Shown here: piece by piece, positions 31,615 to 64,000 of the stretch | How positions within the stretch are numbered: the first letter of the stretch is position 1 | How the letters are laid out: the number at the start of each line of letters is the position of its first letter | Source of the DNA: a virus | Length of the DNA stretch: 64,000 bases | Strand: one strand, 5' to 3' | Virus record (IMG/VR): IMGVR_UViG_3300046314_000711 | Translations under genes and position numbers: made by a program | Notes under the pieces: generated by a model | Told to the model about the DNA's origin: nothing | Seen by the model: only the letters and a program-made list of their open reading frames with translations | Databases searched by the model: none

Positions 31615-31615
31615 C

Positions 31616-32220: not shown

Positions 32221-32224
32221 ATTT

Positions 32225-32315: not shown

Positions 32316-32322
32316 AAAATGT

Positions 32323-32441: not shown

Positions 32442-32447
32442 GTTAAT

Positions 32448-32522
32448 GCCATTGAAGTGTAGAAAGCGACACACTTGTTTCGTAATCAAGAGAGTGGTGG
32501 GCAGGTCACCACAATGGCACCA
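32448..32522 (+). tRNA. tRNA-Thr(CGT)
   Basis: ttCGTaa loop; gccattg/caatggc; CCA. Confidence 0.8.
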
Positions 32523-32595
32523 TCTATAAGAGTTTTCGTCCCCTGCGATAATTCTTTTAAATGGTCTGAAATAGTTTGACTATATAAGATTATAC

Positions 32596-32741
32596 GCCCT
32601 GATAGCAAAGAGGATAATGCACTCGCCTTTTCTGAGAGGATACAGACCTCTCTCCACAGGAGATTCTCACGAGTCTCCTGTCCAGGAGGATAACTCCAAA
32701 AGGTAAGCGAGAGACCGTCCGTTCGAATCGGACTCAGGGCA
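32596..32741 (+). ncRNA. tRNA-Arg-like body with ~70-nt structured insert in anticodon loop
   Basis: gccctga/tcagggc acceptor, GGATA D-loop, ctcgc/gcgag stem, gtccg-ttcgaat-cggac. Confidence 0.75.
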
Positions 32742-32752
32742 CACAAAATTTA

Positions 32753-32825
32753 GCCACCTTAGCTCATCTGGTAGAGTACTGGTTTTGTAATCCAGAGGTG
32801 GCCCGTTCGAGCCGGGCAGGTGGCA
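32753..32825 (+). tRNA. tRNA-Thr(TGT)
   Basis: ttTGTaa loop, canonical arms. Confidence 0.9.
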
Positions 32826-32834
32826 CATCACACT

Positions 32835-32908
32835 AGATCCTTAGTTTAAAAGAAGAACTCCATCCTTACACGGTGGTTGCGGCGGGGCGGTACCGTCAGG
32901 ATCTACCA
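32835..32908 (+). tRNA. tRNA-Val(TAC)
   Basis: ccatc-ctTACac-ggtgg; CCA. Confidence 0.8.
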
Positions 32909-32915
32909 AATTCAA

Positions 32916-32989
32916 GCTCAGTTATTTCAGTGGTAGAATAATTCTTTGGTAAGGAATAGACGGGAGTCCGATTCTCCCACAGAGCACCA
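32916..32989 (+). tRNA. tRNA-Thr(GGT)
   Basis: attct-ttGGTaa-ggaat; CCA. Confidence 0.8.
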
Positions 32990-32998
32990 CACATTTAC

Positions 32999-33075
32999 AC
33001 GACTGTATCATAACTGGATAATGACCAGCATTGCGAGTGCTGAGTATGGAGGTTCAAATCCTCTCGGTCGTACCA
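32999..33075 (+). tRNA. tRNA-Arg(GCG)
   Basis: cagca-ttGCGag-tgctg; GGATA D-loop; CCA. Confidence 0.8.
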
Positions 33076-33106
33076 ATAAATAAACACACGCAAATTTACA
33101 GAATAT

Positions 33107-33198
33107 GGTGGAATGACAGAGTTAGGCTTATTGTGCGTTCCTGCTAAGAACTGCGCTCCGAAGGGGGCACGAGGGTTCGAATCCCTCTTCTACCACCA
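33107..33198 (+). tRNA. tRNA-Ser(GCT)
   Basis: ctGCTaa loop, long variable arm, CCA. Confidence 0.88.
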
Positions 33199-34989: not shown

Positions 34990-37134
34990 ATGACAACCCC
35001 AGTCCAATTTGGTGGTCGTGACGCGCGTGTATATCAGGTACTAGCTCGCAATGAGGTATTGCAAGCACTCAAAGATGGTCACAGTCGAATCTGTGTTGTG
35101 TTACCGACAGGTTGCCATGCAGTTGATACGAAAATTTTAATGTATGACGGGTCAATCAAAGCTGTGCAGGATGTTGTAGTGGGTGATAGATTGATGGGCC
35201 CTGACAATCAGCCTCGTAATGTATTGCAGTTGGCTCGAGGTACTGAGCAGATGTATGATATCGTACCTAAGTCTGGTGACGTGTTTAGAGTCAATGGTGG
35301 TCACGTACTTTCGCTAAAAACCGTTAATGAAGGTACGAGTAAATGGCGACAAAGCCCTTGTTTTTTAACAGGAACTGAAGTTGTTAATGTTACTGTTACT
35401 GATTATTTGAGGTGGTCTACTGACAAAAAACGATTGCATAAAGCATATCTAGCTAACAAATTAGAATTTACTGAACAAAATCATAAAATCCCAGCATATT
35501 TAATGGGAGTATACCTCGGGGATGGAAGTAGTCGCTCGGGTGTTAGCATTACTACCATGGATGCTGAAATTGCAACAGAGTTGACAACATTTAATGATCT
35601 ACACAAACTCCGCACGATAAAACGTGAAATGCATACTCCAAATAAAGCGTCTGTGTATTTCCCTGCTGGTACAGGTCGTGTGGGAGATAATCTTTGGAGG
35701 AATGAGCTTAAACAGTTAAGCTTATTTGGGGTCACTTCTCATCATAAATTCATTCCACCTGTTTACAAAATTGGTAGTGTAGAACAGCGCTTGCAGTTGC
35801 TTGCTGGACTGATTGATACAGACGGTTCTGTCTCAAAAAACACAGTAGAGTATACAACAGTTAGCAAACAACTAGCGCAAGATGTGCAATTTGTGGCTCG
35901 TAGTTTGGGCTTTCGGTGCAATATTAAAGTATATGCTCGTAAGAATAATTACATATGCTACACAATGCATATATCAGGTGCGGGTCAAGAACTCATCCCC
36001 ACTCGATTAGCGAGGAAACAATTAACTGCACGAGCACAGCGTAAGGATGTTCTTAAAACGAGTTTTGAGGTCGTGCCTGTAGGTATTGAACAATATTATG
36101 GGTTTACTGTTGATGGGGATAATCTCTATGTTATGGGAAATTTTTTCGTAACCCACAATAGCGGTAAAACACTTACCGCTGGTATTATCATGGTCGCATC
36201 CGAATTACGTACCATTCTTGGTATTCCAGTTGGTCAACCTCTCCGCGTCCTAATGATTGCTCATAGGCATCGTTTACTGAAGCAAGCTGAAGACTCATAC
36301 AGCGCTGCAGGCATTACCGTGATCAAAGACCACAAAAATACGCCATTTCAAGTGGGGTTCACAGGTACTTGCGACAGTGTTGTCGTGTTTAATACACTAT
36401 CTACGTTCAGTGACGTACCAAAGGATCTCTGTTGGGATATTGCCATTTTGGATGAGTGTCATCACGAGAGTTGCCTGACATTTCAATATAAGCTAGAGCA
36501 AATTAGCGCCAAACCGATCATTGGTCTTACAGCAACTCCGTTGAGAGCGGATGGAGTATTGTGCAAATTCTCGAAATTCGTCGAAACGATCTCTCGTGAA
36601 GACGCTGTCGCAGCTGGTTACCTTGCGGATAGTCACCTATATTCATTCATTGACTCCCCAGCCCGTGAGCACGTTGACATGGTGATGGATATCATCAACC
36701 TCAAACAAAGTGTGCTCGGTCAGACGATGGTATTCGTCCGCACAAAGCAGGAAGCGATTGACGTCACCTCTCGTCTCGAAAAGCTGGGACTGACAGCAGT
36801 TGCTCTTGTCAATATCAAGGAAAAAACACTGAACGAAGAACTGGCTAATTTCGAAAAAGGTGCAGTGCAGTTTGTAGTGTCATGCAATAAAATTGGTGAA
36901 GGTACAGATGTCAAGGGTTGTGAGAGTGTGATTATTGGGCGTACTACACAAAGCTTGCCACTGCTATCGCAAGTTATTGGACGCTCGGCACGGAATGATT
37001 GCGAATCTCACATCTATGAGATTATTAACCCACTATCCAACAGCAACATTACAGCTAGTGATATACTGAAGCCGCAGCTGCATGAAATCTGGTACAAAGT
37101 TCGCCAACAGTGGCGTCACCACACTGTTGTTTGA
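34990..37134 (+). CDS. SF2 DExH helicase with intein
   Basis: LPTG|SGKT Walker A, DECHH, GLTATP, EGTD, QVIGRSAR. Confidence 0.9.
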   Translation: MTTPVQFGGRDARVYQVLARNEVLQALKDGHSRICVVLPTGCHAVDTKILMYDGSIKAVQDVVVGDRLMGPDNQPRNVLQLARGTEQMYDIVPKSGDVFRVNGGHVLSLKTVNEGTSKWRQSPCFLTGTEVVNVTVTDYLRWSTDKKRLHKAYLANKLEFTEQNHKIPAYLMGVYLGDGSSRSGVSITTMDAEIATELTTFNDLHKLRTIKREMHTPNKASVYFPAGTGRVGDNLWRNELKQLSLFGVTSHHKFIPPVYKIGSVEQRLQLLAGLIDTDGSVSKNTVEYTTVSKQLAQDVQFVARSLGFRCNIKVYARKNNYICYTMHISGAGQELIPTRLARKQLTARAQRKDVLKTSFEVVPVGIEQYYGFTVDGDNLYVMGNFFVTHNSGKTLTAGIIMVASELRTILGIPVGQPLRVLMIAHRHRLLKQAEDSYSAAGITVIKDHKNTPFQVGFTGTCDSVVVFNTLSTFSDVPKDLCWDIAILDECHHESCLTFQYKLEQISAKPIIGLTATPLRADGVLCKFSKFVETISREDAVAAGYLADSHLYSFIDSPAREHVDMVMDIINLKQSVLGQTMVFVRTKQEAIDVTSRLEKLGLTAVALVNIKEKTLNEELANFEKGAVQFVVSCNKIGEGTDVKGCESVIIGRTTQSLPLLSQVIGRSARNDCESHIYEIINPLSNSNITASDILKPQLHEIWYKVRQQWRHHTVV
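35113..36159 (+). mobile_element. intein with LAGLIDADG endonuclease (349 aa)
   Basis: CHAVDTKILMYDG start, YLGDG and LAGLIDTDG, ends VTHN/S. Confidence 0.95.
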
Positions 37135-37165
37135 CCCCAACCAACATTTCTAATATAGTACTCGC

Positions 37166-38197
37166 ATGATTTCAAACAAACACTTCCCTATCCTCGACTT
37201 AGTTAAATTTGAGTACGCCCATGTAACTCACATTTCACAGGCTAACATAGACTGTACTATTACTTTGGTTCGTGATGGTGAAGCAGTGAAGTACCCACTA
37301 CCATCTAGCATTTCGTATCGTCTGCGTAAATCAATCGGCAAAGTGGCGAGGTTTGCCACTCCTCACCCAATCTGCGTAGCTTGGGTGGGTGCTCGCATTG
37401 TATGTGCTGAGTGTCCTGATAAAAACGCTCTACTATCTGCTCGCAAGAACCAGTGGAAGAGTCTGATCGAAATTAATGTCACAGCATTTAAACCCCCAAC
37501 AGATGCTTACTTCGATGGTCAATACGTCTACGCGCTAGATGCTGGGCCAGAAGTATTTGATCGTAACTACGGTGTGGTTAAGTTAAGCGCTTGTTTTGAT
37601 TTGTACCACTTAAATGATATCGCATGGACAAATCCAGCACGTGCTTGCTTTGCTTACAAGAACGGACACAATTGGGTCGCTACTGCCCCTTGTACATCAG
37701 CTGCTGGTAGTTTTTTGCAGTTAGTGGTAGATGATGTCAGTGCTAGTACAGCTGCTGTATTTGACTCAATGGCTATGATTGATGCAATTCGCTTTGTCAA
37801 TCTACGCTTTGTTAATTACGCAGCAGGTCGATTAGCTGATGCGTTCGACTTTGAGGCAATTGAGCCGCTAGGTCTGCCGTTACTGATGATTGAGCACGGT
37901 ACATTCAATCTCGGGGAATTAACTCCAACAGTGCAGATGACTTGTCCTGCGCCATTGACATTCTCACAAACACTGGCTTGGTTAATTGGATTGCACCAAC
38001 GTGTGACTACGCTCGATCAGTTCATTACATTGAAAGAAGCAATTAGAATGCTATTGTCTAAAGGTTGCACCCGCAGCGCTGCGGTAATTGGGGAGGGTGA
38101 GGAACTAGCTGACGGTGCTGTAGATCTATCGAAGAATGAGGTTGTGTATTCTGCTCGCAAACAGTTCAACGGTATGGCGGTAGTTCAGTTCGTATAA
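37166..38197 (+). CDS. hypothetical protein
   Basis: 343 aa ORF. Confidence 0.7.
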   Translation: MISNKHFPILDLVKFEYAHVTHISQANIDCTITLVRDGEAVKYPLPSSISYRLRKSIGKVARFATPHPICVAWVGARIVCAECPDKNALLSARKNQWKSLIEINVTAFKPPTDAYFDGQYVYALDAGPEVFDRNYGVVKLSACFDLYHLNDIAWTNPARACFAYKNGHNWVATAPCTSAAGSFLQLVVDDVSASTAAVFDSMAMIDAIRFVNLRFVNYAAGRLADAFDFEAIEPLGLPLLMIEHGTFNLGELTPTVQMTCPAPLTFSQTLAWLIGLHQRVTTLDQFITLKEAIRMLLSKGCTRSAAVIGEGEELADGAVDLSKNEVVYSARKQFNGMAVVQFV

Positions 38198-38260
38198 CTA
38201 CGTGTGTTGCCCCCTTTTTCAAAATCCATATAATTGATCAATCTTTTAGGAGTTCTCAAA

Positions 38261-39289
38261 ATGATCGTTCGTACCCCTCACCTGGTTTCTGCTCCTGTTA
38301 GCGAATCTCGTATCGTCCGCAGCAAGTTAATTTCTCCCATCATGAACGATAAGGGATTGATCGGAATGAAAGTTGATAAGTCTTTCGATGTACCATTCGC
38401 TTCCTCGTCAAGTGAAGCTCGTCAGGTAGCAATTGGAGTTGATCCAGTTCAAGTACTAAAGCAGTATGAGAATGGTCTCTTTCACATGGCTGATGATCAA
38501 GTAGTTGACTACCGTCCCAACTCGTATGTGGGATTTGTCCACAACCCAGCCGCCCTAGCTGAGTTAACAGCTCGTATTGGTTTTTTGAAACAAGGTAATG
38601 TCCTTGTTCCACGTAACCGCACTGCCCAATTTGAACACGAAGCATTTGCGAAGGGTGGAGTATTTGATGTTGACGTCGGTTTCCGTTGGAGTGCCTTCTC
38701 ACCAGAGATTGATTCTCATTTCGAGATGATGCGAGCACTGTGCGCTAATCAGATGATTTTTGGTAAAGGTACAGTAATGTCCCGTAGCATTCCGTTGATT
38801 TCAGATTGGCAAGCCAATATGGCTATCAGCAACGACGTTCTGAAACACATCTTCCGCACTACAGTAACAGGTCGGTTGAATGATATGCCAGAAGAACGCG
38901 CATCGCTAGCAGATGCTCGCTTTTTGGAAGCAGAAATTTCTCGACGTCTTACAGATGATGAAAAACTGACAGCAGCCAGTGCCAAGTTCTTGTCAAACTT
39001 GATGGATAAAATGTCGTTTATCAAAGAAGTTCAATTGCCCAAATCACTCACTACTAATGATGTGAAACGTATTCCAGTACCTATGTCGGTATATGATGCA
39101 ATGAACATTGCAACCGAACTATCCACCCACCACAGTGATAACACACCATCGAATAAATTGAAAGCATTTGCCGTGTCGTGTATTTTTGATAAAAAGCGGC
39201 AGTCGAACATTTCTAGTGAAGAAATCTTCACTACAACTAATACATTCAACGATCCGGATCGTGCGTTCTGGGGTGAAACGGTTCACTGA
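38261..39289 (+). CDS. DUF932-like protein
   Basis: RALCANQM resembles RxxCxNG; AGGAG RBS. Confidence 0.5.
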   Translation: MIVRTPHLVSAPVSESRIVRSKLISPIMNDKGLIGMKVDKSFDVPFASSSSEARQVAIGVDPVQVLKQYENGLFHMADDQVVDYRPNSYVGFVHNPAALAELTARIGFLKQGNVLVPRNRTAQFEHEAFAKGGVFDVDVGFRWSAFSPEIDSHFEMMRALCANQMIFGKGTVMSRSIPLISDWQANMAISNDVLKHIFRTTVTGRLNDMPEERASLADARFLEAEISRRLTDDEKLTAASAKFLSNLMDKMSFIKEVQLPKSLTTNDVKRIPVPMSVYDAMNIATELSTHHSDNTPSNKLKAFAVSCIFDKKRQSNISSEEIFTTTNTFNDPDRAFWGETVH

Positions 39290-53712: not shown

Positions 53713-56277
53713 ATGGCAACTTTTCAACACAGTTCGATAACGGGCGCAGACGTTCATAGCGTAGTAGCGTTTACAGCAACATCTACGTCAGCTCGTGACG
53801 CGCTATCGGTGGCAGCAGGTGATATCGGTAAGGTTTGCCGGGTCACCGCCGATAACACATTTTACATTTTAACAAGCACTTCTCCAGCCGTCTGGTCCCC
53901 GTTCAGCCCAACACCGTCTCTAGCTACTGTAGCAACATCTGGTGCATATGCTGATTTAACTGGTGCACCGTCTCTAGCTACTGTAGCAACATCTGGTGCA
54001 TATGCTGATTTAACTGGTGCGCCAACGATTCCTGATGTGTACACTCTACCAACTTCTTCCACATTGGTGCTAGGTGGTGTGAAAGTAGACGGTTCGACTA
54101 TCGACATTAATGGTAGTGGGGTTATTAGCGTAATAGGTGGTAGTGCTGCAACTCCTACAGCACGCGGTGCTGTGTACGGATCTGTAGACAACTTGGAAAA
54201 TACTGGAATCGGCAAATTCGCTCAAGCTACTGTTTCTACCACACTAACAGGCGATCGCAACACATCTGTTGGTGTATATTCACTGTATTCAATAACATCC
54301 GGTAATGATAATGCTGGTCTTGGTCACAATAGCTTACGTGGTTTGATATCGGGCAATCAAAACTCCGGTTTTGGCGCGTACTCGCTAAAAGCATTGACCA
54401 CTGGAAATCGAAACGTCGGTTTTGGTGCTCAATCTGGTGCAAATATTACAGGAGGCTATGGTAACATCGCGGTTGGCGTATTAGCACTCGATCAGTTGCG
54501 CGACGGCAGCCAAAACATCGCTATTGGTCAAGATTCACTAAAAGCACTGCGTAATGATGGTAGTACATACAATCAGCATTTCAATATTGCAATCGGTGCA
54601 TGGAGTGGTACAACCTTGACTTCAGGATACGATAACATTATTATCGGTACTAATGCAGAACCTTCCAGCGCCACTGTAAGTGGTGAAGTAACACTAGGTA
54701 CTACTACCTCCGTCAATAGATTCAGAATACCTGGCATTGGCTTGGATATTTCCAAAGCTGACGCCCAGGCAAACCACGACGGAAAAGTACTAGCATGGAG
54801 CACTGCTGCAAATTCCAGTGCTGGTGGATTTGTGTGGACTACCCCATCTACTTCGTACACCCTGCCAACAGCTTCTACGACAATATCAGGTGGTGTTAAA
54901 GTTGATGGTACCACAATTGCAATTGACGGCAGTGGCGTTATTAGTAGTATTGCTAGTGCTGCAGCTACTCCTACTGCATACTCGAAGCGCTTGATGCTTA
55001 CTGGCTCATCCACGATAGCTGGTACTGGTGCATCATCGTACGCCAACTCTTACGCCGGTAAACTAACAACTGCAATGACTGCACGTGGTTGGACTGTTGC
55101 GAATACAGGCATTTCAGGAAATGCGTCGCAAAATGTGATCGATAGATTCTATACTGATATTGCTCCTTTCAAACCTGATGTTGTAATGATCGGATTGACA
55201 ATTGCAAACGAAGGTATTTCGGGTAACGTCAACTTCAATAATGGTAAATTTGTTGGAGTGCAAACATACCTTAAAAACATATACAAGTTGGTTGATATGT
55301 GCAGGCAGATTGGTGCAAAAGCAATAATTGCAGGTCAATTTTCTCGTAACGAATATAACGGTAACGACTACGCATTTGCAAAATTTGTTGACAAAGAGCT
55401 ACAAACATCAAATATCCCTTATATCTTGTTGATGGGAACTGTTGATGACGGCACAGGTAATTACAAAACATTCATGACACCTGACGGCGTCCACCCAAAT
55501 AATCTTGGTCACGAAGCAATGTATCGTGCAATACCGCTATCGATGTTTGATAGAATACCAAACGGATTCCAGTACTGGGATGTTGACTATCCAAGCAGTG
55601 GCGTATATTTGAGTACTAATGACAACGTTGCATCCCCTATCAATATTCCACTAGATAACGTCAATAACGGTTATACAATTAGTTCATTGTCTGTTGAGCC
55701 AATTGGATGCTATTCAGTTGCGTTCTGGATTAAGAAGCGTAGTGGAGCTGCGAATGGACTCGCCTTTTTTGCTGCAAACAACAACGGTACCACTGGTGCT
55801 CCATTGCGCCTCCGTCAAGCAACTGGTAGTGAGTTGTATGAACTAGCAACTGGTGGCACAATCGTAGCTTCCGCAGTTAGTGCAGCAGATTTGCTTCCTC
55901 ACCACGTTGTTATAACTTACGAATACCAAGCAGGTCAATCTGTTGACGTAGCTAGTTTATACATTGACGGCGTGCTAATCGGTTCCGCTAATACTAACTT
56001 CGTAGGACAAAATCCATACTCATTCTCTCTGTTGGGTCGTCCAGACAATGCTGGTGTCAACGCTGTTGGTTATGAGATCTCTAAATTTGGTGCATGGAAG
56101 TCTGCACTAACACCTGATCAAGTTAAAGAAGCATACAGAGGTCGTTACCCTAAAGGTGGTTGCATTGCGTACTTGCCATTGTCAGATGCTAATACTGTAC
56201 AAGGTATTACATTGACACAAGTTGCAGCGTCTGATCGACTAGCAATTGTCAACAGTGCTAACATCGTATCGGTGTAA
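53713..56277 (+). CDS. tail fibre/spike with adhesin-like repeats, SGNH hydrolase and LamG-like domains
   Basis: LATVATSG repeats, LGGVKVDG, NxxxG repeats, GSS...DGVHPN, LYIDG; TAAATA at 53679. Confidence 0.75.
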   Translation: MATFQHSSITGADVHSVVAFTATSTSARDALSVAAGDIGKVCRVTADNTFYILTSTSPAVWSPFSPTPSLATVATSGAYADLTGAPSLATVATSGAYADLTGAPTIPDVYTLPTSSTLVLGGVKVDGSTIDINGSGVISVIGGSAATPTARGAVYGSVDNLENTGIGKFAQATVSTTLTGDRNTSVGVYSLYSITSGNDNAGLGHNSLRGLISGNQNSGFGAYSLKALTTGNRNVGFGAQSGANITGGYGNIAVGVLALDQLRDGSQNIAIGQDSLKALRNDGSTYNQHFNIAIGAWSGTTLTSGYDNIIIGTNAEPSSATVSGEVTLGTTTSVNRFRIPGIGLDISKADAQANHDGKVLAWSTAANSSAGGFVWTTPSTSYTLPTASTTISGGVKVDGTTIAIDGSGVISSIASAAATPTAYSKRLMLTGSSTIAGTGASSYANSYAGKLTTAMTARGWTVANTGISGNASQNVIDRFYTDIAPFKPDVVMIGLTIANEGISGNVNFNNGKFVGVQTYLKNIYKLVDMCRQIGAKAIIAGQFSRNEYNGNDYAFAKFVDKELQTSNIPYILLMGTVDDGTGNYKTFMTPDGVHPNNLGHEAMYRAIPLSMFDRIPNGFQYWDVDYPSSGVYLSTNDNVASPINIPLDNVNNGYTISSLSVEPIGCYSVAFWIKKRSGAANGLAFFAANNNGTTGAPLRLRQATGSELYELATGGTIVASAVSAADLLPHHVVITYEYQAGQSVDVASLYIDGVLIGSANTNFVGQNPYSFSLLGRPDNAGVNAVGYEISKFGAWKSALTPDQVKEAYRGRYPKGGCIAYLPLSDANTVQGITLTQVAASDRLAIVNSANIVSV
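53912..54020 (+). repeat. 54-bp tandem duplication in fibre gene
   Basis: PSLATVATSGAYADLTGA encoded twice identically. Confidence 0.9.
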
Positions 56278-56310
56278 ACTATAAGGAGTGTAAAAATCAA
56301 TACCTCTGGC

Positions 56311-56703
56311 TTGAAAACAATCATAGCAGGCTCACGTGGAATTACTGACTATAATATAGTCCACAAGGCGATATACGAATCGCCTTGGGTAATTACTGAA
56401 GTGGTGTCTGGTGGTGCTAGAGGTGTTGATACACTTGGCGAACAAGCGGCTGCCGCATTCGCCATCCCTGTGAAAGTATTTCCAGCTGCTTGGGCCACAC
56501 ACGGTCGAGCAGCTGGTCCTATTCGCAACCAAGAAATGGCTGAGTACAGTGATGGACTCATCGCAATATGGGACGGAGTAAGTACTGGAACTGCGGATAT
56601 GATCAGACGAGCGGAACGTATGAAGTTACGCGTTCACGTGATCAATCTGTCAACCGTGCCTGTGAAACCGTGGTACGATGATATGGATGAGTTTGGGTTT
56701 TGA
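56311..56703 (+). CDS. SLOG/YspA (DUF2493) family protein
   Basis: IAGSR, VSGGARGVD, AGPIRNQEMA, WDG.S.GT..MI. Confidence 0.88.
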   Translation: MKTIIAGSRGITDYNIVHKAIYESPWVITEVVSGGARGVDTLGEQAAAAFAIPVKVFPAAWATHGRAAGPIRNQEMAEYSDGLIAIWDGVSTGTADMIRRAERMKLRVHVINLSTVPVKPWYDDMDEFGF

Positions 56704-56713
56704 AAAATAACTG

Positions 56714-56892
56714 TTGACCCACTTTTCAAAATGTGTTACATTTAACTTATCGGTTCGCAAGAATGAAAGTTTGAACTAACCTGTTGACCAGATTTCGAAA
56801 ATGTGTTACATTAGACAAATCGGTTGATAAAAAAGATTTTTCTCCTAAACCATGAAAAATCGTTGACCACAAGAAGAGTTTGCATATATACT
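56714..56892 (+). promoter_or_regulatory. tandem sigma70 promoters of tRNA array 2
   Basis: TTGACC-17-TACATT at 56714 and 56784; TTGACC..TATACT at 56863. Confidence 0.75.
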
Positions 56893-56929
56893 TAAAAGAC
56901 TGATTAATTTAACTTAAAGAGAAACTAAA

Positions 56930-57037
56930 ATGAACGCCGTATTACTGAATCAACAACCGCTCTGTGCGCAACCGAATTATTGGTTGCAGCAAGCCTTTGT
57001 GCATTCGTTTTCCGCTAGTTCTGTAGAGACTCTCTAA
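56930..57037 (+). CDS. attenuator leader peptide of tRNA array 2 (MNAVLLNQQPLCAQPNYWLQQAFVHSFSASSVETL)
   Basis: 35-codon ORF with AAAGAG RBS; codons mirror array 2 tRNAs; contains antiterminator strand. Confidence 0.8.
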   Translation: MNAVLLNQQPLCAQPNYWLQQAFVHSFSASSVETL

Positions 57038-57065
57038 TAGAATAAAAAGCAAAAACAAATTTCAC

Positions 57066-57093
57066 AAGGGCTCCCTACAAGGAGCCCTTTTTT
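57066..57093 (+). terminator. attenuator terminator, array 2
   Basis: aagggctcc-ctacaa-ggagccctt plus T tract; 5' arm also pairs with 56992-57001. Confidence 0.9.
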
Positions 57094-57120
57094 ATTGAGC
57101 GATCGTGCACAATAAAGTGA

Positions 57121-57133
57121 TGTTCATTAAAAA
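57121..57133 (+). promoter_or_regulatory. boxA-like site
   Basis: tgttcattaaaaa. Confidence 0.6.
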
Positions 57134-57152
57134 TTAAAGAATATTGTAGTGC

Positions 57153-57225
57153 AGAGTGTTGGTGTAATTGGCAACATACAGAATTCCAAATTCTGCTGAT
57201 TTCAGTTCGAATCTGAAGCGCTCTG
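57153..57225 (+). tRNA. tRNA-Trp(CCA)
   Basis: cagaa-ttCCAaa-ttctg; canonical T arm. Confidence 0.85.
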
Positions 57226-57260
57226 CACTGCAATATTTGCGAAGAAATAGTTTTCTTTGT

Positions 57261-57344
57261 CCGTGTATAGGCTAGCCTGGTCAAGTCACTCGTTTTGGGG
57301 GCGAGAGTAGTAATACATCGCTGGTTCGAATCCAGCTACACGGA
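57261..57344 (+). tRNA. tRNA-Pro(TGG), long variable region
   Basis: ctcgt-ttTGGgg-gcgag; C1-G72, A73. Confidence 0.8.
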
Positions 57345-57360
57345 CAAAGAAAATTAATAT

Positions 57361-57445
57361 GGGGTGTTATACCGTTAAAGAGACGGTCCGGATTGTAAAC
57401 CCGGCGCTTTAAGCTCAGATGGAGCATTACCATCACACCCCACCA
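57361..57445 (+). tRNA. tRNA-Tyr(GTA)
   Basis: ttGTAaa loop, variable arm, CCA. Confidence 0.82.
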
Positions 57446-57463
57446 AAAATTAGTAATCTGTGC

Positions 57464-57538
57464 TGTGGTAGAGGCGTCTTGGTGACAACCGCGGAACTGT
57501 TAATTCCGATTAGCGTGTATCGTTCACACGTACCACAG
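57464..57538 (+). tRNA. tRNA-Asn(GTT)
   Basis: cggaa-ctGTTaa-ttccg; G73. Confidence 0.75.
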
Positions 57539-57563
57539 CACAGATTACTTAATAAAGCATTGC

Positions 57564-57645
57564 TGGCATATAGCTCGGTTGGTAGAGCGCTCAGTCTGGA
57601 CCTGAGAGACGCACATAAGTCGTATACATAGGTTTGAATGCTACT
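57564..57645 (+). pseudogene. degenerate tRNA (possibly Gln CTG)
   Basis: Good D arm and ctcag/ctgag stem around tCTGgac; T arm and acceptor 3' strand decayed. Confidence 0.5.
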
Positions 57646-57663
57646 AACGAAGTCAGTATTTTT

Positions 57664-57738
57664 CTCGGTAAAGCGTTGATGGCGTCGCACGTGTTTTGGG
57701 AACATGAGGGGAAGTTTCGAGCACTTCTACCGAGACCA
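57664..57738 (+). tRNA. tRNA-Pro(TGG)
   Basis: cgtgt-ttTGGga-acatg; CCA. Confidence 0.8.
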
Positions 57739-57746
57739 AGTTTTAT

Positions 57747-57818
57747 GGGGGCAGCAGTGGGCTGCGGTTCTGCCTTGCAAGTAGAATGTCTAGTGGGATT
57801 CGATTTCCCCGGCCTCCA
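57747..57818 (+). tRNA. tRNA-Ala(TGC)
   Basis: tctgc-ctTGCaa-gtaga; G3:U70. Confidence 0.7.
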
Positions 57819-57871
57819 CACATTTTCGGATAGCACCTTGCTATCTCTCAATCCACTGAATAGGTCGGTGG

Positions 57872-58150
57872 CGTGTTAATCGACTCTGCACACGCAGGGT
57901 TTTCAGTATCTACGATAAAGGTACGGCTAAGTTGTAATGCTAAAGAATTTATGCGCGATATGTCGAAAAGTGAGACAACTGCCTTTGACGCAGTACCAAA
58001 GAAGGGGCAGTACCTTCATCGCGTTCCAACTTATAGGAGATACTGTGAAAGCATTTGGTTCTAAACGAGCATACCACGACTGCCGAGTTTATCGTGCAGG
58101 ACGTGGTAAAAAGATCCTCTTCACCACTGGTGTCAAGAGTCGCAAACACG
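57872..58150 (+). ncRNA. unknown ~280-nt structured RNA
   Basis: Nested helices cgtgtt/aacacg, cgactct/agagtcg, cagtatct/agatactg, aaggtac/gtacctt. Confidence 0.55.
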
Positions 58151-58198
58151 GTCGCAAGACTGTAATATTGCAAGATGGTGAGAATTGATAGAGATTGC

Positions 58199-58278
58199 GC
58201 CCCTGTTGACAAATTGGAAAAGTCGTCTTTTTTAGAAAAAGAAATATTTTGCAGGTTCGAAGCCTGTCGGGGGCACCA
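58199..58278 (+). tRNA. tRNA-Leu(TAG)
   Basis: tcttt-ttTAGaa-aaaga; CCA. Confidence 0.8.
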
Positions 58279-58299
58279 AGTTTACAAGGAGATCGCAAT

Positions 58300-58470
58300 A
58301 TGAGCAAAAACGCAAAAAAGATCGCAGTACTAGAATCACGTATTGCAGAGTTGGAAGCAGAAATGAAGATGTCACTTCAAAGGAAGTTGTCTGGTAAGGT
58401 GGCATTTGATGTACCTGGCTGTCTTCGCAAGATTGCCGATCTGCGTAAAGATGTCAGCAACCTGAAGTGA
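58300..58470 (+). CDS. small coiled-coil protein in tRNA array
   Basis: AAGGAG RBS, 56 aa. Confidence 0.65.
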   Translation: MSKNAKKIAVLESRIAELEAEMKMSLQRKLSGKVAFDVPGCLRKIADLRKDVSNLK

Positions 58471-58500
58471 GAGTGCGATGCCATCATAATGATGGCACTA

Positions 58501-58684
58501 TTTTATGTCGTAGATTAGTGGAACCTGGAAAGCATCCGTACAAATGTGGACTGGAGGGCGCAACGAGTTGTTTGAAGCTAGTGGAGTGGCCACAAAGCCA
58601 GCAGAATCAATCTTCGTATGCTTAAATCGCTGTTCTTGGGTGAACGGAGACACTGTGTTGTGTAATGGTGCAGTCGACATAAAA
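58501..58684 (+). ncRNA. unknown ~185-nt RNA
   Basis: ttttatgtcg/cgacataaaa closing stem; no credible ORF. Confidence 0.45.
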
Positions 58685-58697
58685 TAGTTATAATTTT

Positions 58698-58780
58698 GCG
58701 AGTGTGGTGGAACGGGATACACTACTGTCTTAAACGCAGTCGCCCGTAAGGGATTGAGGGTTCGAGTCCCTCCACTCGCA
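58698..58780 (+). tRNA. tRNA-Leu(TAA)
   Basis: actgt-ctTAAac-gcagt, long variable arm. Confidence 0.9.
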
Positions 58781-58801
58781 CACATTTTTAGACTTTATTG
58801 A

Positions 58802-58885
58802 GTAGGCGTGGCAGAGCGGTCGAATGCGCGGGATTGCAATCCCCGATCCTTAAAGGACACGTCAGTTCAAATCTGACCGCCTACT
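58802..58885 (+). tRNA. tRNA-Cys(GCA), long variable arm
   Basis: ttGCAat loop; U73. Confidence 0.82.
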
Positions 58886-58902
58886 CAATAAAGTTTTTAT
58901 AT

Positions 58903-58979
58903 GCCCCCGTACGCTAAGAGGTAGTGCGACTGGACTTAAAATTTAGTGGCTGGGAGTTCGAATCTCCACTTCTTCACCA
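58903..58979 (+). pseudogene. chimeric tRNA-Leu(TAA)
   Basis: ctTAAaa loop and T arm present, but acceptor strands do not pair. Confidence 0.6.
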
Positions 58980-59010
58980 TTTATAAATAACAAACTGTTA
59001 ATAAAGTACG

Positions 59011-59628
59011 ATGAAACTCCAACATATTCTTGATGAAATGGCGTACAAAACCACTACACAACATCCTGAGTTTCCTCAGGAGCAAGTGGATGGATTTGCA
59101 AAATGGATACAAGATGGTAGCGTTGCTCATCCTGTCGAAGGCGGTAAATTCAAAGTCCTGCAAAAAGAATTCGCTTTCGCATTGTTTCGTGCTAGAGATG
59201 AAGCATTGTTGGGGTGGGTTTTGCTTGATGCTGAGAAAACTGAATATGGAATATCTGCATATCCTCTAAAAAACATCCAGATTCTACCAAAGTATCGTAA
59301 CACTGCAGCAATTGTTGTGCTGATAAACGCGATGCGGCTGATACTCAATCGCCCCGTGTTGATAGATAATCCAATATTTTCCGGTGGACAATCACTACTA
59401 AAAGCAATTATCGCTCGACCAGACACGATGCCTCGAGTTAAAACGATTAATAAACGCACAGGTGAAGTTAAACAATATACTGATATGGATTTAGTATATG
59501 ACGATACGATAGCAGTATTACTAGAACAACTCCATTGGAAACTAACTCATTGTGATATTCTCCCAGGAGGATATAGTCGAGACATTGTGCTTGAGTTTTT
59601 CTCAACCTACACTACTGACTTGATATAG
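59011..59628 (+). CDS. late protein, possible GNAT-like fold
   Basis: TATAAATA at 58982; MKLQHILDE leader; IQILPKYRN. Confidence 0.6.
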   Translation: MKLQHILDEMAYKTTTQHPEFPQEQVDGFAKWIQDGSVAHPVEGGKFKVLQKEFAFALFRARDEALLGWVLLDAEKTEYGISAYPLKNIQILPKYRNTAAIVVLINAMRLILNRPVLIDNPIFSGGQSLLKAIIARPDTMPRVKTINKRTGEVKQYTDMDLVYDDTIAVLLEQLHWKLTHCDILPGGYSRDIVLEFFSTYTTDLI

Positions 59629-60021
59629 GACTTGACGACACATCAGTTTTCACTATATACTTGATATTAATGCACCTCTCAAGCTTCAACCGGTTACCCG
59701 AATTGCCGGTATTGCTCAAACTGAGAAGATGTGTTTAGGGCTTTACCCTATTCATATCAACCACATCTACTTCTGATCGCGGGTAGACATTCAATGCGGC
59801 AGGTATTCAAGCGACACGGACCGTCGTCCGACTACATCACTGACTTCCTATCTGGTGGAAACTACTTGGGATTAAGGTCTGTGAGGACATAAGATTGAAT
59901 GTCTCTGTTGCGGGACAGAGAACATTCAGCAGGGCACTAGGTGATATACCAAGTTGTGTAAGCACTACCCTGCTGAATGTTAAAGTGCGGTATACGCAAT
60001 ATACTTTCATAACCTACTCAT

Positions 60022-60498
60022 ATGTCATTTATTGCCACAGATTATATCAACCATACTGCAGTGCAGCAATTTACTGTCGTTAGCTCTGCGGCTGCAGAAG
60101 CACGTCCCCACTTATCATTTATGGCATGGTTGAAAGAGTACCGCACATTTTCAATTGGACTACCTCGACAAGTTGGAAAAACAACAGCACTGCTGGCGGT
60201 GTCAAATGAGTCTACTGCTATCATCTTCCCGACACCCTTGATGTTGGCTTATGTTAAACGTAGCCGCCTCTCTGTATCAGTTGGTCTCTACGATCCTGGT
60301 AGTTTTGTAGAGTATGCATCGTCGTATCACACGTCGAGTAATTCACCCAAACTAACTCAGATCTTTATGGATGAATTTGATTACATACCTACTCACCAAG
60401 CGGAACAGGTAATGAATGCTATAGAGATGCTACAGCATCGTGGCGGATTGGCGGACGATGTGTTCATTCTGAAGGTTGGCACTCCACCTTTTTGCTAA
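60022..60498 (+). CDS. small P-loop protein (terminase-like Walker A)
   Basis: LPRQVGKTT; IFMDE. Confidence 0.6.
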   Translation: MSFIATDYINHTAVQQFTVVSSAAAEARPHLSFMAWLKEYRTFSIGLPRQVGKTTALLAVSNESTAIIFPTPLMLAYVKRSRLSVSVGLYDPGSFVEYASSYHTSSNSPKLTQIFMDEFDYIPTHQAEQVMNAIEMLQHRGGLADDVFILKVGTPPFC

Positions 60499-60526
60499 AT
60501 ACTTAATATTCGTACAACTGTTTTAT

Positions 60527-61861
60527 ATGATGAGATTTATTGACTATTTAATTGAAGCGTCTTCCGGCGTGGATATGTGGGACAAGTACTACAAGGGTCG
60601 TCGGGTAATGACGACTATCAAACCGAAGGGGGCACAGTTATATGACGCTAATACCAATAAAGCAATCCCAGGAAAAAAACTGAGCGGTGGACACGAAGTG
60701 CTAGTTATTGGTGAGTATCCATTGCTACCAACACCGTCTCCAGCAGATATGGCACCTGGTTCGCGGTATGATTTGCGTGTTGGAGCTACTGATCCAGCAA
60801 ATGCTGCGTCAAAAGCATACCAACAGCGCAGCACTCCAGGTAATGACCCAAGTTTCGTTGACGTTGAATACAGTACTCGCACTAAAATTGCAGTGTACGA
60901 TGATGGTCACCAAAGCGTGTATCTTGTAAGCGTTAGTGATATTGCTAAGCCACTTCAAAAGAAGTTGTTTGTGTCACTAAAGCCTCAGAAAGTTTTAGCA
61001 GGCCGAGGTAAAGTTGAAAACGGATTCGCTGTGTTCCCTACATTGACTGCGTATAAGACAGAGTTGATCGCTGGAATTGAACAGTGTTCTGATCTGTCTA
61101 AGGAAGTTAAAGCATATTTAACGACATTGGTGATCGATGGAAGGAATGCAAGTGCTGTTCAACCAACGTATGACCAAACAGGAATTTCGAATAGCGTGCC
61201 ATCATACAATGCGCTAAACAATGATTTCTTGGAGATGATTGGCCCATTTGTAGTTGGAAAGAGTGGAAAGGTAGAAATTCCATTACGCGACAATGAGGCT
61301 ATGATTGATTTTAAAGTTGGTGGGGTAGGTTTTTCTTCAAAGCGTGCAGCCACAGTAGCAAATACACTAAAGTGTGGTGATGTGATTAAAGCACTTGGAG
61401 GACAAAAACTCAATCAGATGGAATTTTCATATCAACTCATGTCAACTCTTGCAACTGCTACTGTAAAGCAAGCACCAGCCGAACTGACAAACTTATTTAA
61501 TAGTAGTAAGTTCGCTTCGGAAATTGCTCAATTTGCTAGCGAACGAGTGTTCAAAAACAAGCGATCCACATGGCTTCCAGCAAAATCTGACTGGTCAATT
61601 GAAGATAACTACAACATGCAGATGACTACTATTGAGAAGTTCGTTAACCAGTGTGTCGCTCAAGGTTCTATAAATTTTGACAAATACGTCAATGAAGCAT
61701 TAATGGATGTGGGCGTAGTAAAAATGCAAATTAATCCACGCACTGGTGCATTGGATAAAATCGCGGTAACCCAACCTGGTTCAATGACTGCTTCTAAAGT
61801 TGGAATCCGGCACAAGGGTCGTGGATTCAAAGGCGGTGAACGTATGGGGTTTGTTCTGTAG
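60527..61861 (+). CDS. late protein with possible PD-(D/E)XK nuclease domain
   Basis: TAAATA at 60496; MMRFIDYLIE leader; FLEMIGP...NEAMIDF...SSK. Confidence 0.55.
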   Translation: MMRFIDYLIEASSGVDMWDKYYKGRRVMTTIKPKGAQLYDANTNKAIPGKKLSGGHEVLVIGEYPLLPTPSPADMAPGSRYDLRVGATDPANAASKAYQQRSTPGNDPSFVDVEYSTRTKIAVYDDGHQSVYLVSVSDIAKPLQKKLFVSLKPQKVLAGRGKVENGFAVFPTLTAYKTELIAGIEQCSDLSKEVKAYLTTLVIDGRNASAVQPTYDQTGISNSVPSYNALNNDFLEMIGPFVVGKSGKVEIPLRDNEAMIDFKVGGVGFSSKRAATVANTLKCGDVIKALGGQKLNQMEFSYQLMSTLATATVKQAPAELTNLFNSSKFASEIAQFASERVFKNKRSTWLPAKSDWSIEDNYNMQMTTIEKFVNQCVAQGSINFDKYVNEALMDVGVVKMQINPRTGALDKIAVTQPGSMTASKVGIRHKGRGFKGGERMGFVL

Positions 61862-62064
61862 TGCTAACTTATCCTGAACTTGCTGCACTAGGCTTTTGTC
61901 CAGTGAAGAACTACGGGTGGATGAAAGCTTTCCCTCGGGGCTTCCGTCTTCCGCTATCCTGCCCAGCAGATCTATACAAAAGGCTCCCGCTGCAGATCCA
62001 GATTTTCTACGACTCTCCTATCGTTGATGGTAAGCGAGCATTAAAACGCCAACTAACCTGTTGA
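61861..62064 (+). CDS. hypothetical protein
   Basis: 67 aa ORF, GTG start. Confidence 0.35.
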   Translation: MLTYPELAALGFCPVKNYGWMKAFPRGFRLPLSCPADLYKRLPLQIQIFYDSPIVDGKRALKRQLTC

Positions 62065-62236
62065 CCTAAACTCAAACTGGCGATATAATGCTCCCTGTGT
62101 CTGGGAAATATCGCTGGTAAATAAAAGACTTGTAAATATTTTCAAATATCTGTTGACTTTAATAGAAAACGGTATATAATAGACCCTAATGCAGTGATCG
62201 AGCTGCTAAACAGAGTTCTTTAAAAAGTTGCTTGTT

Positions 62237-62330
62237 AGCGTCGTAATCTGGGATACCATGCTCGCCTGGTAAGAGTGTGAGGTAGTGGTCGCCAGCCACA
62301 ATAGATGAGGTTCGACTCCTCCACGACGCT
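62237..62330 (+). ncRNA. tRNA-like RNA (cassette 1)
   Basis: gcgtcgt/acgacgc stem, gagg-ttcgact-cctc T arm, D-like hairpin. Confidence 0.6.
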
Positions 62331-62825
62331 AATAAGCAACTTTTTAAAAGATTCTGTTGACCTTAAAAGATTTTAGGGGATAATAGACGTACAGATAGTG
62401 ATCGCACTACTAATAATAGAGTTCTTTAAAAAGTTAGTTTGTTGTGCTGAAAGGTCCACCCACTGTCTTGTGGGGAGAAGGTAATAAGAAAGTTATCAGA
62501 TCCGTTTGATAGCAGAAATAACTTTAACAAACGAAACTTTTTAAAAGATTCTGTTGACCCTAGCCAAAATTGGGGTATAATGGAGACTAAGCAGTGATCG
62601 AGCTGCTTGATAGAGTTCTTTAAAAAGTTAGTGAAACCGCTGTTCATAGTGACGCCAGCTGAGATGCTGGGTAGCGCCAAAAAAGAACGAACAGTGGGAT
62701 GACTTGGATCATACCAAGCGTATCACAAAACTTTTTAAAAGATTCTGTTGACACATACTGAAAAGTGTGTGATAATAGACCCTAAGGCAGTTAAGACTGA
62801 TCACAGTAAACTGCAAAGTTCATTA

Positions 62826-63079
62826 AAAATCTAAAGTTACGAAACAGTAGGATTAGTAGTGTCCATCTGATAATGAGTGGCAAATGGTTCGAAGTGCACC
62901 ACCCGCGCAGTAATTGCCAGGGGAAGTGAATACGGGAAGCCATACGGGAAGTGTAAGTCAGTCCAGATACTTGTAAATGCAGGAGGTCTAAAGACCTGAG
63001 CGACCGCAGCAATGTGGGAGAGATACTGGGACCGTTTGAAGCCTTTAGTGTAATAACACATTCGTAACTAATAGATTTT
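62826..63079 (+). ncRNA. unknown ~250-nt RNA (cassette 4)
   Basis: aaaatcta..gttacgaa / ttcgtaac..tagatttt closing stem. Confidence 0.55.
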
Positions 63080-63174
63080 GTTCTTTAATAATTTACCGAG
63101 TGATATTCCTCTACATCGACTTCACAGTCCAATGTCGGGAGACAGCTGGTGGTTTAACCGCCCGGTTGGAGGAG

Positions 63175-63408
63175 TCATATTCAAATATCGAGTAAGCGAG
63201 GAGTGCAACCCAACTGAAGACGGCCACTGCATAGCCGAGCCGGACGCGGTATTTGAATATGATTATCTATGCGACGATAGTGACTAGGGCGCTTCGGGGT
63301 CTTCGACAATAGCATAGAATCATATTCAAATATCGAGTAAGCGAGGAGTGCAACCCAACTGAAGACGGCCACTGCATAGCCGAGCCGGACGCGGTATTTG
63401 AATATGAT
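63175..63408 (+). repeat. exact 89-bp direct repeat (63175-63263, 63320-63408), each a hairpin RNA
   Basis: Identical copies closed by tcatattcaaatatcg/cggtatttgaatatga. Confidence 0.95.
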
Positions 63409-63528
63409 AAAGGTGAATGGGTTAGGTATGTCACTGCCATAAGAACGCGGCATGCTGAGTTGGTTCAATTCCAACAACTTTTGTTCAATATGAATCCATG
63501 TGACAATAGCGCGCAACGATAGCATGGA

Positions 63529-63632
63529 ATCATATCAAAGGATAATCGCAGGTAATGGCAAGTTGGTAGGCCATCCAGTTAATTCTGGCGCTGTAGTCGG
63601 AGGTTCGAATCCTTCTTATTCTTTGATATGAT
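63529..63632 (+). ncRNA. tRNA-like RNA in 17-bp closing stem
   Basis: ggagg-ttcgaat-ccttc T arm; tggc-aagttggtag-gcca D-like hairpin. Confidence 0.6.
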
Positions 63633-64000
63633 CGATGAGTGTTCGAGTAGCCGTGATGTTACTCACAGGGCAAGTAATCATCGTATGACATCTCGGAAAG
63701 ACGGGCTTCATATTTAAGTACTCCTTATAGGATCGTGCATTGGTAGTTCAAGCAGGGGAAGTTTGTAGTACTTAAATATGGTAAGTCGGTTGTTTGTGGG
63801 TCATAGAGAATTGCAGTAAGTTGGTTTAGCGACCTTCTGAAGATTCTCAACCGGGGCTGCTACTCCAAAGGTAGATACTGGGACTCGGAATCTCAGATAC
63901 AAACAACAATTCATAGCAAAGGATGTTGCAACATTCTAGCGAGGTCGCAGGCAGTAATACAGCCCCTTCCGTTCGATTCGGAGTTATGGATGACTTGGCA

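Follow-up and report, generated by a model that had tools for sequence, protein, structure and literature searches.

Positions 62061-63094 of the virus record IMGVR_UViG_3300046314_000711, analysed here over a stretch of 64,000 nucleotides (nt; 64 kilobases, kb) that we call the window, hold an array of repeated cassettes in which promoters followed by a boxA-like word alternate with small RNAs enclosed by long stems. The window is part of an uncultured freshwater jumbo (giant) myophage. We consider it probable that these cassettes are tandem launch modules of the type found in ribosomal RNA (rRNA) operons (rrn), placed at the head of an untranslated RNA array and furnished with swappable, stalk-enclosed small RNAs, so that host Nus factors would be loaded on the transcript and the small RNAs would be released by cleavage. 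The cassettes share one anatomy that is conserved among related phages, both stalks and cargo RNAs covary at the RNA level, and the cargoes turn over from one phage to another. The comparison was made with seven metagenomic phages (L040, which is identical to L041, and L042, L044, L045, L046, L047 and L048) found through the flanking 444-amino acid (aa) protein and 67-aa open reading frame (ORF), which together with the window make eight independent loci.

Promoters and launch modules

A consensus promoter scan and a repeat finder recovered, inside 62061-63094, all the elements that a first-pass annotation of this DNA had described there. Five sigma70 promoters had been announced, and the scan gave five, each scoring 10-11/12, with the 16-base pair (bp) spacers claimed for three of them being found at 62153, 62357 and 62554. 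These promoters, like all the features of the array, are on the plus strand; they represent 5 of the 28 plus-strand sites of such quality in the 64 kb and are packed into 716 bp, and no terminator-like sites were found on this strand inside 62061-63094.

The first promoter, P1 (62061-62089, TTGACC-17-TATAAT), is followed by a leader of around 60 nt (62090-62150) without hairpin or boxA. The other four head a constant module formed by an A/T-rich upstream tract, the promoter, a GATC hairpin and the boxA-like word GTTCWTTAAAAA. The aligned unit reads A/T tract AACTTTTTAAAAGATTCTG, -35 TTGACC, spacer, -10 KATAAT, AGACCCTAA, hairpin GCAGTGATCGAGCTGC, around 8 nt and GTTCTTTAAAAA; the repeat finder returned it as families D1-D6, and the long stems as I1 and I4-I16. 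Launch module 2 (62134-62232) has its promoter at 62153-62180 (TTGACT-16-TATAAT), the GATC hairpin at 62191-62206 and the boxA-like GTTCTTTAAAAA at 62215-62226. In launch module 3 (62338-62438) the UP-like tract is the 3' arm of the first stalk, and it is followed by the promoter (62357-62384, TTGACC-16-GATAAT), the hairpin (62395-62410) and boxA (62421-62432). Launch module 4 (62535-62632) starts likewise with the 3' arm of the second stalk, with its promoter at 62554-62581 (TTGACC-16-TATAAT), hairpin at 62591-62606 and boxA at 62615-62626. Launch module 5 (62729-62835) is of a terminal type: its UP-like tract is the 3' arm of the third stalk, its promoter is TG-extended (62748-62776, TTGACA-17-GATAAT), and a long GATC hairpin (62787-62814) precedes the boxA GTTCATTAAAAA at 62818-62829.

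The near-consensus hexamers, the three 16-bp spacers and the A/T-rich tract at -40 to -60 are those of rrn P1-type promoters. When compared with the E. coli rrnG leader, read from a RefSeq genome, the promoter tract AAACTTTTTAAAA falls in register with AAAGTTTTTATAT of rrnG P1, and the 22 nt upstream of the phage -35 (CGAAACTTTTTAAAAGATTCTG) are identical at 14 of 22 positions, as read by eye, to those upstream of rrnG P1 (ATAAAGTTTTTATATTTTTCGC). The tract presumably agrees with the published UP-element consensus as well.

The GATC hairpin of the first-pass annotation stands as a conserved inverted repeat, present in all modules, and no further than that, since it is kept in sequence with almost no covariation (one pair with a double change). 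Its GATCG word is invariant in 11 aligned modules and may be bound by a factor from phage or host, or be a Dam site.

A boxA-like motif heads every untranslated RNA array

The word GTTCWTTAAWAA has six exact copies in the window against 0.06 expected, all of them on the plus strand, and a looser pattern adds a seventh, also on this strand (GATCATTAAAAA at 28284). The seven sites correspond to the four cassettes, a second copy after the fourth cargo (63080-63091, GTTCTTTAATAA) that leads into the downstream RNA array, and one copy at each of the two arrays that contain the 16 transfer RNA (tRNA) genes called by ARAGORN in the window (28312-33198 and 57153-58886). In array 1 the motif (28284-28295) starts 19 nt after a CGATCG word and lies between the attenuator terminator and the first tRNA (28312); in array 2 (57122-57133, GTTCATTAAAAA) it is found 21 nt after CGATCG, again between the attenuator terminator and the first tRNA. 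All seven copies thus sit at array heads, ahead of tRNA/ncRNA arrays, and no untranslated RNA array in the window lacks the motif in front of it. In the modules it is on the transcribed strand, shortly after the promoter and before a long untranslated RNA. Across the window the remaining sequences are three copies of GTTCTTTAAAAA, and relatives carry GTTCTTTAACAA.

The motif is part of a bipartite signal, found on the plus strand only, that consists of (C/T)GATC(G/A), 14-16 nt and boxA, at 28265-28295, at 57101-57133 and in the four cassettes; at these six sites the (C/T)GATC(G/A) word is located 19-21 nt upstream of boxA. In arrays 1 and 2 only the CGATCG word is retained of the leader hairpin. 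The copies at 28284, 57122 and 63080 have no complementary stalk partner, and that three of the seven sites lack one indicates that the word is conserved for itself, and not merely as half of a stem.

As for known boxA sequences, the first 11 nt of the phage motif are identical (11/11) to the boxA of the Legionella pneumophila Lens CRISPR array, GTTCTTTAAAA, and addition of this boxA to a synthetic array leader increased the precursor CRISPR RNA around 10-fold (PMC7862264). The match with the E. coli rrnG boxA GCTCTTTAACAA is 10/12, and 11/12 for the GTTCTTTAACAA of the relatives. The distance from the -10 to the start of boxA is 35 nt in the phage compared with 37 nt in rrnG P2, where the boxB hairpin intervenes.

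The same arrangement was found in the cultured relative XacN1, in which a single promoter and GTTCTTTAACAA (at 36631) head an unannotated RNA stretch that runs into tRNA genes. In this phage (L054, AP018399.1, around 36560-39050), some 2.4 kb annotated as empty hold several tRNA-like T arms and a would-be tag of the transfer-messenger RNA (tmRNA) type ending in YALAA and a stop, all of them behind the promoter and GTTCTTTAACAA.

Stalks formed by boxA and the next promoter

Each module is followed by an unrelated RNA of 80-220 nt closed by a stem of 27-36 bp; the boxA leader supplies one outer arm of this stem, and the upstream tract of the next promoter the other. The outer 20 bp or so are constant, the leader AGAGUUCUUUAAAAAGUU pairing with the trailer AACUUUUUAAAAGAUUCU, which doubles as the upstream tract of the next promoter, and the inner 8-15 bp are cargo-specific. 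Inverted repeat I1, for instance, has 36-nt arms that are 89% complementary.

Cassette 1 (62209-62358) has a 36-bp stalk with arms at 62209-62244 and 62323-62358 that encloses cargo W1, and folds with a z score of -9.1. Cassette 2 (62415-62555) encloses W2 (about 62444-62525; z -4.8), cassette 3 (62609-62749) encloses W3 (about 62637-62722), and cassette 4 (62825-63079) has its stalk at 62825-62843 and 63061-63079, around the 217-nt or so of cargo W4. The first three stems begin within or just before boxA and end at a CTGTT that abuts the next -35, and the fourth, as the first-pass annotation implied, is set apart: its helix begins in the last A's of boxA and ends directly before the second boxA copy (63080-63091), with no promoter there. 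Compared with shuffled sequences, whole units gave fold z scores of -4.8 to -9.1, and -3.2 for unit 4.

These stems are true cargo-specific leader-trailer helices. For 12 cassettes from five loci, cognate arms pair with a mean of -25.9 kcal/mol, against -12.3 kcal/mol for non-cognate arms. Between the window and L044, compensated changes affect 5 of 23 stalk pairs; in a five-phage alignment of the cassettes with W3 the figure is 9 of 11, so that helices longer than 17-20 bp are supported by covariation. In L044 the AAAAA/UUUUU pairing of boxA with its trailer has become AAUAA/UUAUU. BoxA variants of the relatives move toward the rrn consensus AACAA, the C being left unpaired in the stalk. The compensation in the first case and the tolerated mismatch in the second are as expected if both the boxA sequence and its pairing were selected.

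Long stems were also observed around other RNAs of the phage. The Trp and Pro tRNAs of array 2 (57141-57238 and 57250-57356) have complementary flanks of 10-13 bp that extend the acceptor stem (AATATTGTAGTGC...CACTGCAATATT and TTTTCTTTGT...ACAAAGAAAA), and leader-trailer stems look therefore like a general habit of this phage. Within the same array, at 57453-57555, a long perfect stem, AATTAGTAATCTGTGCTGTGGT...ACCACAGCACAGATTACT, surrounds an RNA of around 60 nt.

The cargo RNAs

Nine cargo families were distinguished over the eight loci, named W1, W2, W3, W4, X, A1, A4, Y and Z. Rfam scans of 56000-64000 (E<=1) and of five relatives (E<=0.1) matched no cargo, the only matches being tRNAs and weak YrlA, tmRNA and leader matches outside the cassettes, and no cargo copies were found elsewhere in the loci or arrays. 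The cargoes were also considered as rRNA mimics and this was rejected: local alignments of the nine with E. coli 16S, 23S and 5S rRNA gave z scores of -1.0 to +0.6 relative to shuffles, and blastn against all E. coli genomes gave no match.

The cargoes are real RNAs, as supported by compensated pairs in W3 and compensated hairpins in W1 and W4. W3 is a conserved RNA family present in five phages: the window, L044 and three further phage contigs from IMG/VR (L059, L060 and L061) that were found by a scan for its invariant word. Its core consists of UAGUGACGCC, a hairpin and GGGUAGCGCCAAAAAAGAACG closed in a 9-bp stem, followed after one nucleotide by a second hairpin, and 21 nt of this core are nearly invariant. 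In the alignment of the five sequences, 28 of 36 pairs are compensatory and 94% of the cells are paired, against 35-40% in slid controls, and none of 500 shuffles reached the observed values. Of five matches to a looser W3 pattern, two fell by chance in coding DNA. W3 stands between two sigma70-like promoters in all five phages, adjoining both, and the module after it carries boxA in four of them, no boxA being seen in that of L060. A polymerase-directed role is conceivable for this promoter-proximal RNA.

W1 (62237-62331) is tRNA-shaped. An acceptor-like stem continuous with the stalk, a D-like hairpin of 3 bp with a GAUA loop, a long variable arm and a canonical T arm (GGUUCGACUCC) can be recognised, together with an anticodon-like stem of 6 bp and a 9-nt loop that was drawn by eye; the RNAalifold model pairs this region differently. 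It is not called by ARAGORN at default or -ps settings, only at a relaxed threshold, and it gave no match to Rfam RF00005 at E<=1. In L048 the W1 homolog carries compensatory changes, both in the stalk and in the D-like stem, and the anticodon-like stem, also by eye, stays paired there through A-U to G-C and C-G to U-A changes. It is possible that W1 acts as a tRNA-shaped decoy. W2 has the hairpins CCCAC/GUGGG and UAUCAGAUCCGUUUGAUA and a purine-rich linker, with homologs in L040 and L046, and the W4 variant of L046 has a compensated hairpin. In total, homologs with compensated stems were found for W1, W2, W4 and X in addition to W3.

Cargo turnover among related phages

The window carries P1, three modules with W1, W2 and W3, a terminal module with W4, and the second boxA. 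The first-pass annotation had proposed a modular, recombinable system, and the variation of the cargoes is that expected from it: relatives, even those with 93-97% identity in the flank, carry different cargo sets in matching modules. L046 (97%) has P1, a module with W2 and a terminal module with the W4 variant; L045 (93%) has P1 and a module with X; and L048 has P1 and a module with the W1 homolog. Among the more distant loci, L042 (49%) has X and a terminal module without cargo and with a single boxA, L044 (45%) has the W3 homolog and an empty terminal module, and L040 (49%) has P1, A1, W2, a terminal module with A4, and boxA. L047 has P1, Y, a terminal module with Z, and boxA. P1 and its leader are kept in L040, L045, L046, L047 and L048. 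Nothing occupies the fourth slot in L042 and L044, and in L040 and L047 it is filled by unrelated cargo, with arms that are different yet complementary. The duplicated boxA is found wherever this slot is filled (L040 7183, L047 2444), and a single copy where it is empty (L042 12063, L044 11974).

The modules are 78-90% identical between phages, compared with 64-68% for the DNA of the flanking gene; module 4 of the window, for example, is 87% identical to the L042 module, with 67.5% in the flanking gene. Terminal module orthologs in L040, L042, L044, L046 and L047 are also 78-90% identical, and are closer to each other than to the remaining modules of their own genomes. An identity above that of the flank, together with orthology prevailing over homogenisation, indicates that the modules are old and under selection, and not recent duplicates. 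At the same time, they are long direct repeats, so that units of a cargo plus a module could be gained, lost and exchanged by recombination, which would produce strain-specific cargo sets. A number of metagenome contigs stop inside the stack or shortly ahead of it, which is what repeats and strain heterogeneity would lead one to expect.

In L040 and L044 the stack is followed downstream by 5-7 kb that are nearly free of ORFs and contain bona fide tRNAs, which makes the stack the head of a third RNA array. No further strong plus-strand promoters were found in this downstream array in L040, and three sites of 10/12 were found in L044. As the stack heads a multi-kb untranslated array of tRNAs and noncoding RNAs (ncRNAs), its modules would also serve as the promoters and the antitermination leader of this array.

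The design is not peculiar to one clade, as shown by the tandem modules of L061 (IMGVR_UViG_3300047476_000577, 8620-8100, minus strand), a 104-kb contig from an unrelated phage; the locus analysed there contains 39 tRNAs. Three promoter modules follow one another in it and share a constant sequence of their own, GACAAGAAATTCATTGTTTGCTAYAAT, two of them with boxA. Its module 1 carries a tRNA-like RNA in a stalk after GTTCTTTAAAAA, module 2 carries W3, and module 3 leads to the array after GTTCTTTAACAA.

The first element after the last boxA (TTAACCGAGTGATATTCCTC...GAGGA) was located at 63092-63173 in the window, 7195-7290 in L040, 12075-12195 in L042 and 2456-2550 in L047. It has a closed multi-hairpin fold and, unlike the swappable cargoes, is constant, being conserved in all relatives. 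Further on, in a downstream array of constant-stem hairpins, the window has two direct repeats of 92 nt (63172-63263 and 63317-63408), 99% identical, with hairpins closed by TCATATTCAAATAT/ATATTTGAATATGA.

Comparison with known systems and proposed mechanism

In rrn operons the leader carries boxB, boxA and boxC, of which boxA is necessary and sufficient for the antitermination complex of NusB, NusE, NusA, NusG, SuhB and S4, and boxC has an unclear role (PMC10250234). According to the model, this complex keeps the leader close to the RNA exit channel up to the moment when the trailer comes out, and correct biogenesis depends on the leader-trailer helix, which is longer than 17 bp and overlaps the RNase III site (PMC10250234). 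The rrn-style reading given in the first-pass annotation is supported in part, in that the resemblance is real at the sequence level (boxA, order and spacing of inverted repeat and boxA, 16-bp spacers and A/T tract). Shared with the rrn leader are the stacked strong sigma70 promoters, with three 16-bp spacers (rrnG P1 also has 16 bp), a hairpin-like inverted repeat followed by boxA, the position ahead of a long untranslated structured RNA, and the repetition of boxA before later RNAs, as in the 16S-23S spacer (PMC10250234). The differences are that the system here is phage-borne, that its module is repeated four or five times, each launching a different small RNA, that the hairpin contains an invariant GATCG, and that the leader strand of the helix begins inside boxA, whereas that of rrn begins 18-19 nt downstream, at boxC. 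The phage modules also lack a GU-rich boxC and a GC-rich discriminator.

The stalks are similar to the helices of precursor rRNA (pre-rRNA) and other RNase III stalks, such as the early-RNA sites of T7, in that covarying flank helices of 27-36 bp bookend independently folding RNAs within a polycistronic transcript. In the phage, however, the outer half of the helix is shared, being boxA on the 5' side and the upstream tract of the next promoter on the 3' side, and cleavage is proposed here by analogy. In boxA-led CRISPR arrays (Stringer et al. 2020, as cited in PMC7862264), boxA is proposed to prevent polarity or Rho termination. They have in common with the phage array the boxA word GTTCTTTAAAA, placed in a leader ahead of many small RNAs that form a long, repetitive and untranslated array and are later excised, and differ in having one leader and boxA per array, repeats processed by Cas, and spacers instead of structured RNAs as cargo.

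The put RNAs of phage HK022 have two stem-loop domains one nucleotide apart. W3 resembles this general description, with a promoter-proximal position in five phages and two stem-loop domains separated by one nucleotide, and differs in being missing from some close strains and in its stalk, which points to excision and not to an action in cis.

All these parts, namely rrn promoters and leaders, boxA-led CRISPR arrays and RNase III stalks, are of known kinds. In no paper did we find the repetition of a cassette with swappable small RNAs, a single A/T word used as boxA, promoter upstream tract and stem, or the use of such elements for launching phage tRNA/ncRNA arrays. A literature search for boxA with phage tRNAs, or for tRNA-like RNAs as jumbo-phage decoys, found no paper, and a broader one gave rrn and CRISPR background only.

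The cassettes fit the rrn scheme closely, and we propose on this ground a sequence of Nus loading, looping out and helix cutting, in which we infer that the promoters are active, and early in infection. Host RNA polymerase would start at every module, and the nascent boxA would load the host NusB/NusE-centred antitermination complex, so that elongation would be processive and resist Rho across several kb of structured RNA that is not translated. The cargo would loop out, and the trailer would then pair with the leader, displacing boxA, while the boxA of the next module would reload the polymerase. By analogy with pre-rRNA, the helix would let the cargo fold independently, and a cut of the RNase III type would free a discrete small RNA.

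Several observations weigh against this proposal. No GU-rich boxC was found 18-19 nt after boxA, where the cassettes have the cargo-specific stalk arm, a GU-rich run after boxA being present at array 1 only (GCGTGTGTTTT). The sequence after the -10 is AGACCCTAA, AGACGTACA or GGAGACTAA, compared with the GC-rich discriminator GCGCCACC in rrnG P1, and the leader hairpin is without meaningful covariation. BoxA-like 12-mers occur inside or before protein genes in phages Xoo-sp13 and RsoM2USA, so that the motif alone is not diagnostic. Structured RNA is in any case a poor substrate for Rho, so that a requirement for antitermination is an assumption. Since both boxA and the UP-like tract have an A/T-rich, near-palindromic sequence, their complementarity could be partly incidental. 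If NusB/NusE hold boxA single-stranded, simultaneous pairing in the stalk is excluded, and the two roles would have to follow one another.

Alternative readings

A simpler explanation would be that the boxA-like word is no Nus-factor site at all but an A/T-rich stalk strand mirroring the next UP-like tract, the units being then tandem strong promoters with processing stems. The almost perfect pairing of the boxA-bearing 5' arm with the 3' arm, the A-to-U change in boxA that is compensated in the 3' arm, the missing boxC and the isolated boxA-like 12-mers in coding DNA of related phages are all in line with it. We nevertheless regard it as unlikely, because the motif is kept without a partner at 28284, 57122 and 63080, and also in XacN1 and L061, is strictly strand-specific, has the -10 spacing of E. 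coli rrn P2, equals a boxA that works in Legionella (PMC7862264), and takes the consensus C of AACAA at the cost of a stalk mismatch. Rather improbable is that the cargoes are junk, either tRNA genes in decay or spacer DNA that was caught when promoters were duplicated around it. Such an origin would account for W1 being tRNA-shaped and failing tRNA models, for cargo sets that differ between near-identical strains, none being therefore essential, and for seven of the nine families being seen in only one or two lineages; but it does not predict 28 compensated pairs for W3 in five phages that otherwise share little DNA, the compensated stems in homologs of W1, W2, W4 and X, or a perfectly matched inner stalk for each cargo.

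The repeated A/T-rich units, the invariant GATC and the strong promoters recall origin regions, and metagenome assemblies break at the stack, which would suit an element acting as DNA (a replication origin, a packaging site or an operator array) with repeats, GATC and A/T tracts as binding sites for protein. This we consider very improbable: the compensatory changes are of RNA type, including G-U pairs, and strand-specific, the units have a single orientation throughout, the cumulative GC skew has no turn at the stack, and repeats with strain heterogeneity would be enough to break the assemblies.

If the proposal of rrn-type launch modules with stalk-enclosed small RNAs is correct, phages would have taken over the complete logic of rRNA production (UP element, strong promoter, boxA antitermination and leader-trailer helices) to mass-produce ncRNAs, and would have compacted it to the point that one A/T-rich word is antitermination signal, promoter enhancer and processing stem. 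It would also give a concrete reason for the escape from Rho of very long untranslated phage RNA arrays, and the cassettes would be a natural, ready-made system for the expression of structured RNAs. The cargoes amount to at least nine undescribed phage RNA families, among which W3 has good support from covariation, and the speed at which close strains exchange them suggests that they have roles in the conflict between host and phage. Tentatively, the array might be seen as an RNA counterpart of the integron, a conserved platform of promoter, boxA and stalk that would capture and shuffle small RNAs as weapons or tools of early infection, for example tRNA-shaped decoys for host anticodon nucleases or for other RNA-targeting defences; W3 could instead be a put-like modifier of RNA polymerase, in cis or in trans, and cargo turnover would be the record of an arms race. 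For the boxA part, XacN1 on Xanthomonas citri offers a cultured system.

Genomic setting

Upstream of the array, the 444-aa protein (60527-61861) is encoded directly before the 67-aa ORF (61861-62064, plus strand), which is conserved and overlaps the -35 of P1 with its stop codon. Homologs of this ORF are found at the matching position in L040, L042, L044, L045, L046, L047 and L048. Pfam gave no match for it, and Pfam and PHROGs gave nothing informative for the flanking ORFs.

Searches for further relatives were made in several collections. The window at 61900-63200 had no match by megablast or blastn in 50,697 phage records, and neither did the flanking protein by tblastn against the phage records. 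In IMG/VR, an 18-nt boxA arm gave single chance matches only, and the flanking protein, the array-head word, the W2 word and the hairpin-boxA pattern gave nothing related. This last pattern had no matches in genome contigs, so neither a host rrn leader nor a prophage copy was found. Neither the window's own DNA nor near relatives of it were found in the phage, IMG/VR and genome collections scanned, and the metagenome scan gave mostly chance matches and one true relative, L033, on the contig of L040.

PHROGs names in the window include tail sheath, large head-tail adaptor and DNA polymerase, and the tail sheath is around 41% identical to those of the Xanthomonas phages XacN1 and Xoo-sp13 and of Stenotrophomonas phages. 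In L040 (6344-6523), L042 (11597-11772) and L044 (11526-11702), the conserved 67-aa ORF is separated from the promoter stack by a zinc-ribbon ORF of 58-60 aa (CxxC...CxxC) that has a consensus promoter to itself; this zinc-ribbon ORF has no homolog anywhere in the window and is also missing from the close strains of the latter.

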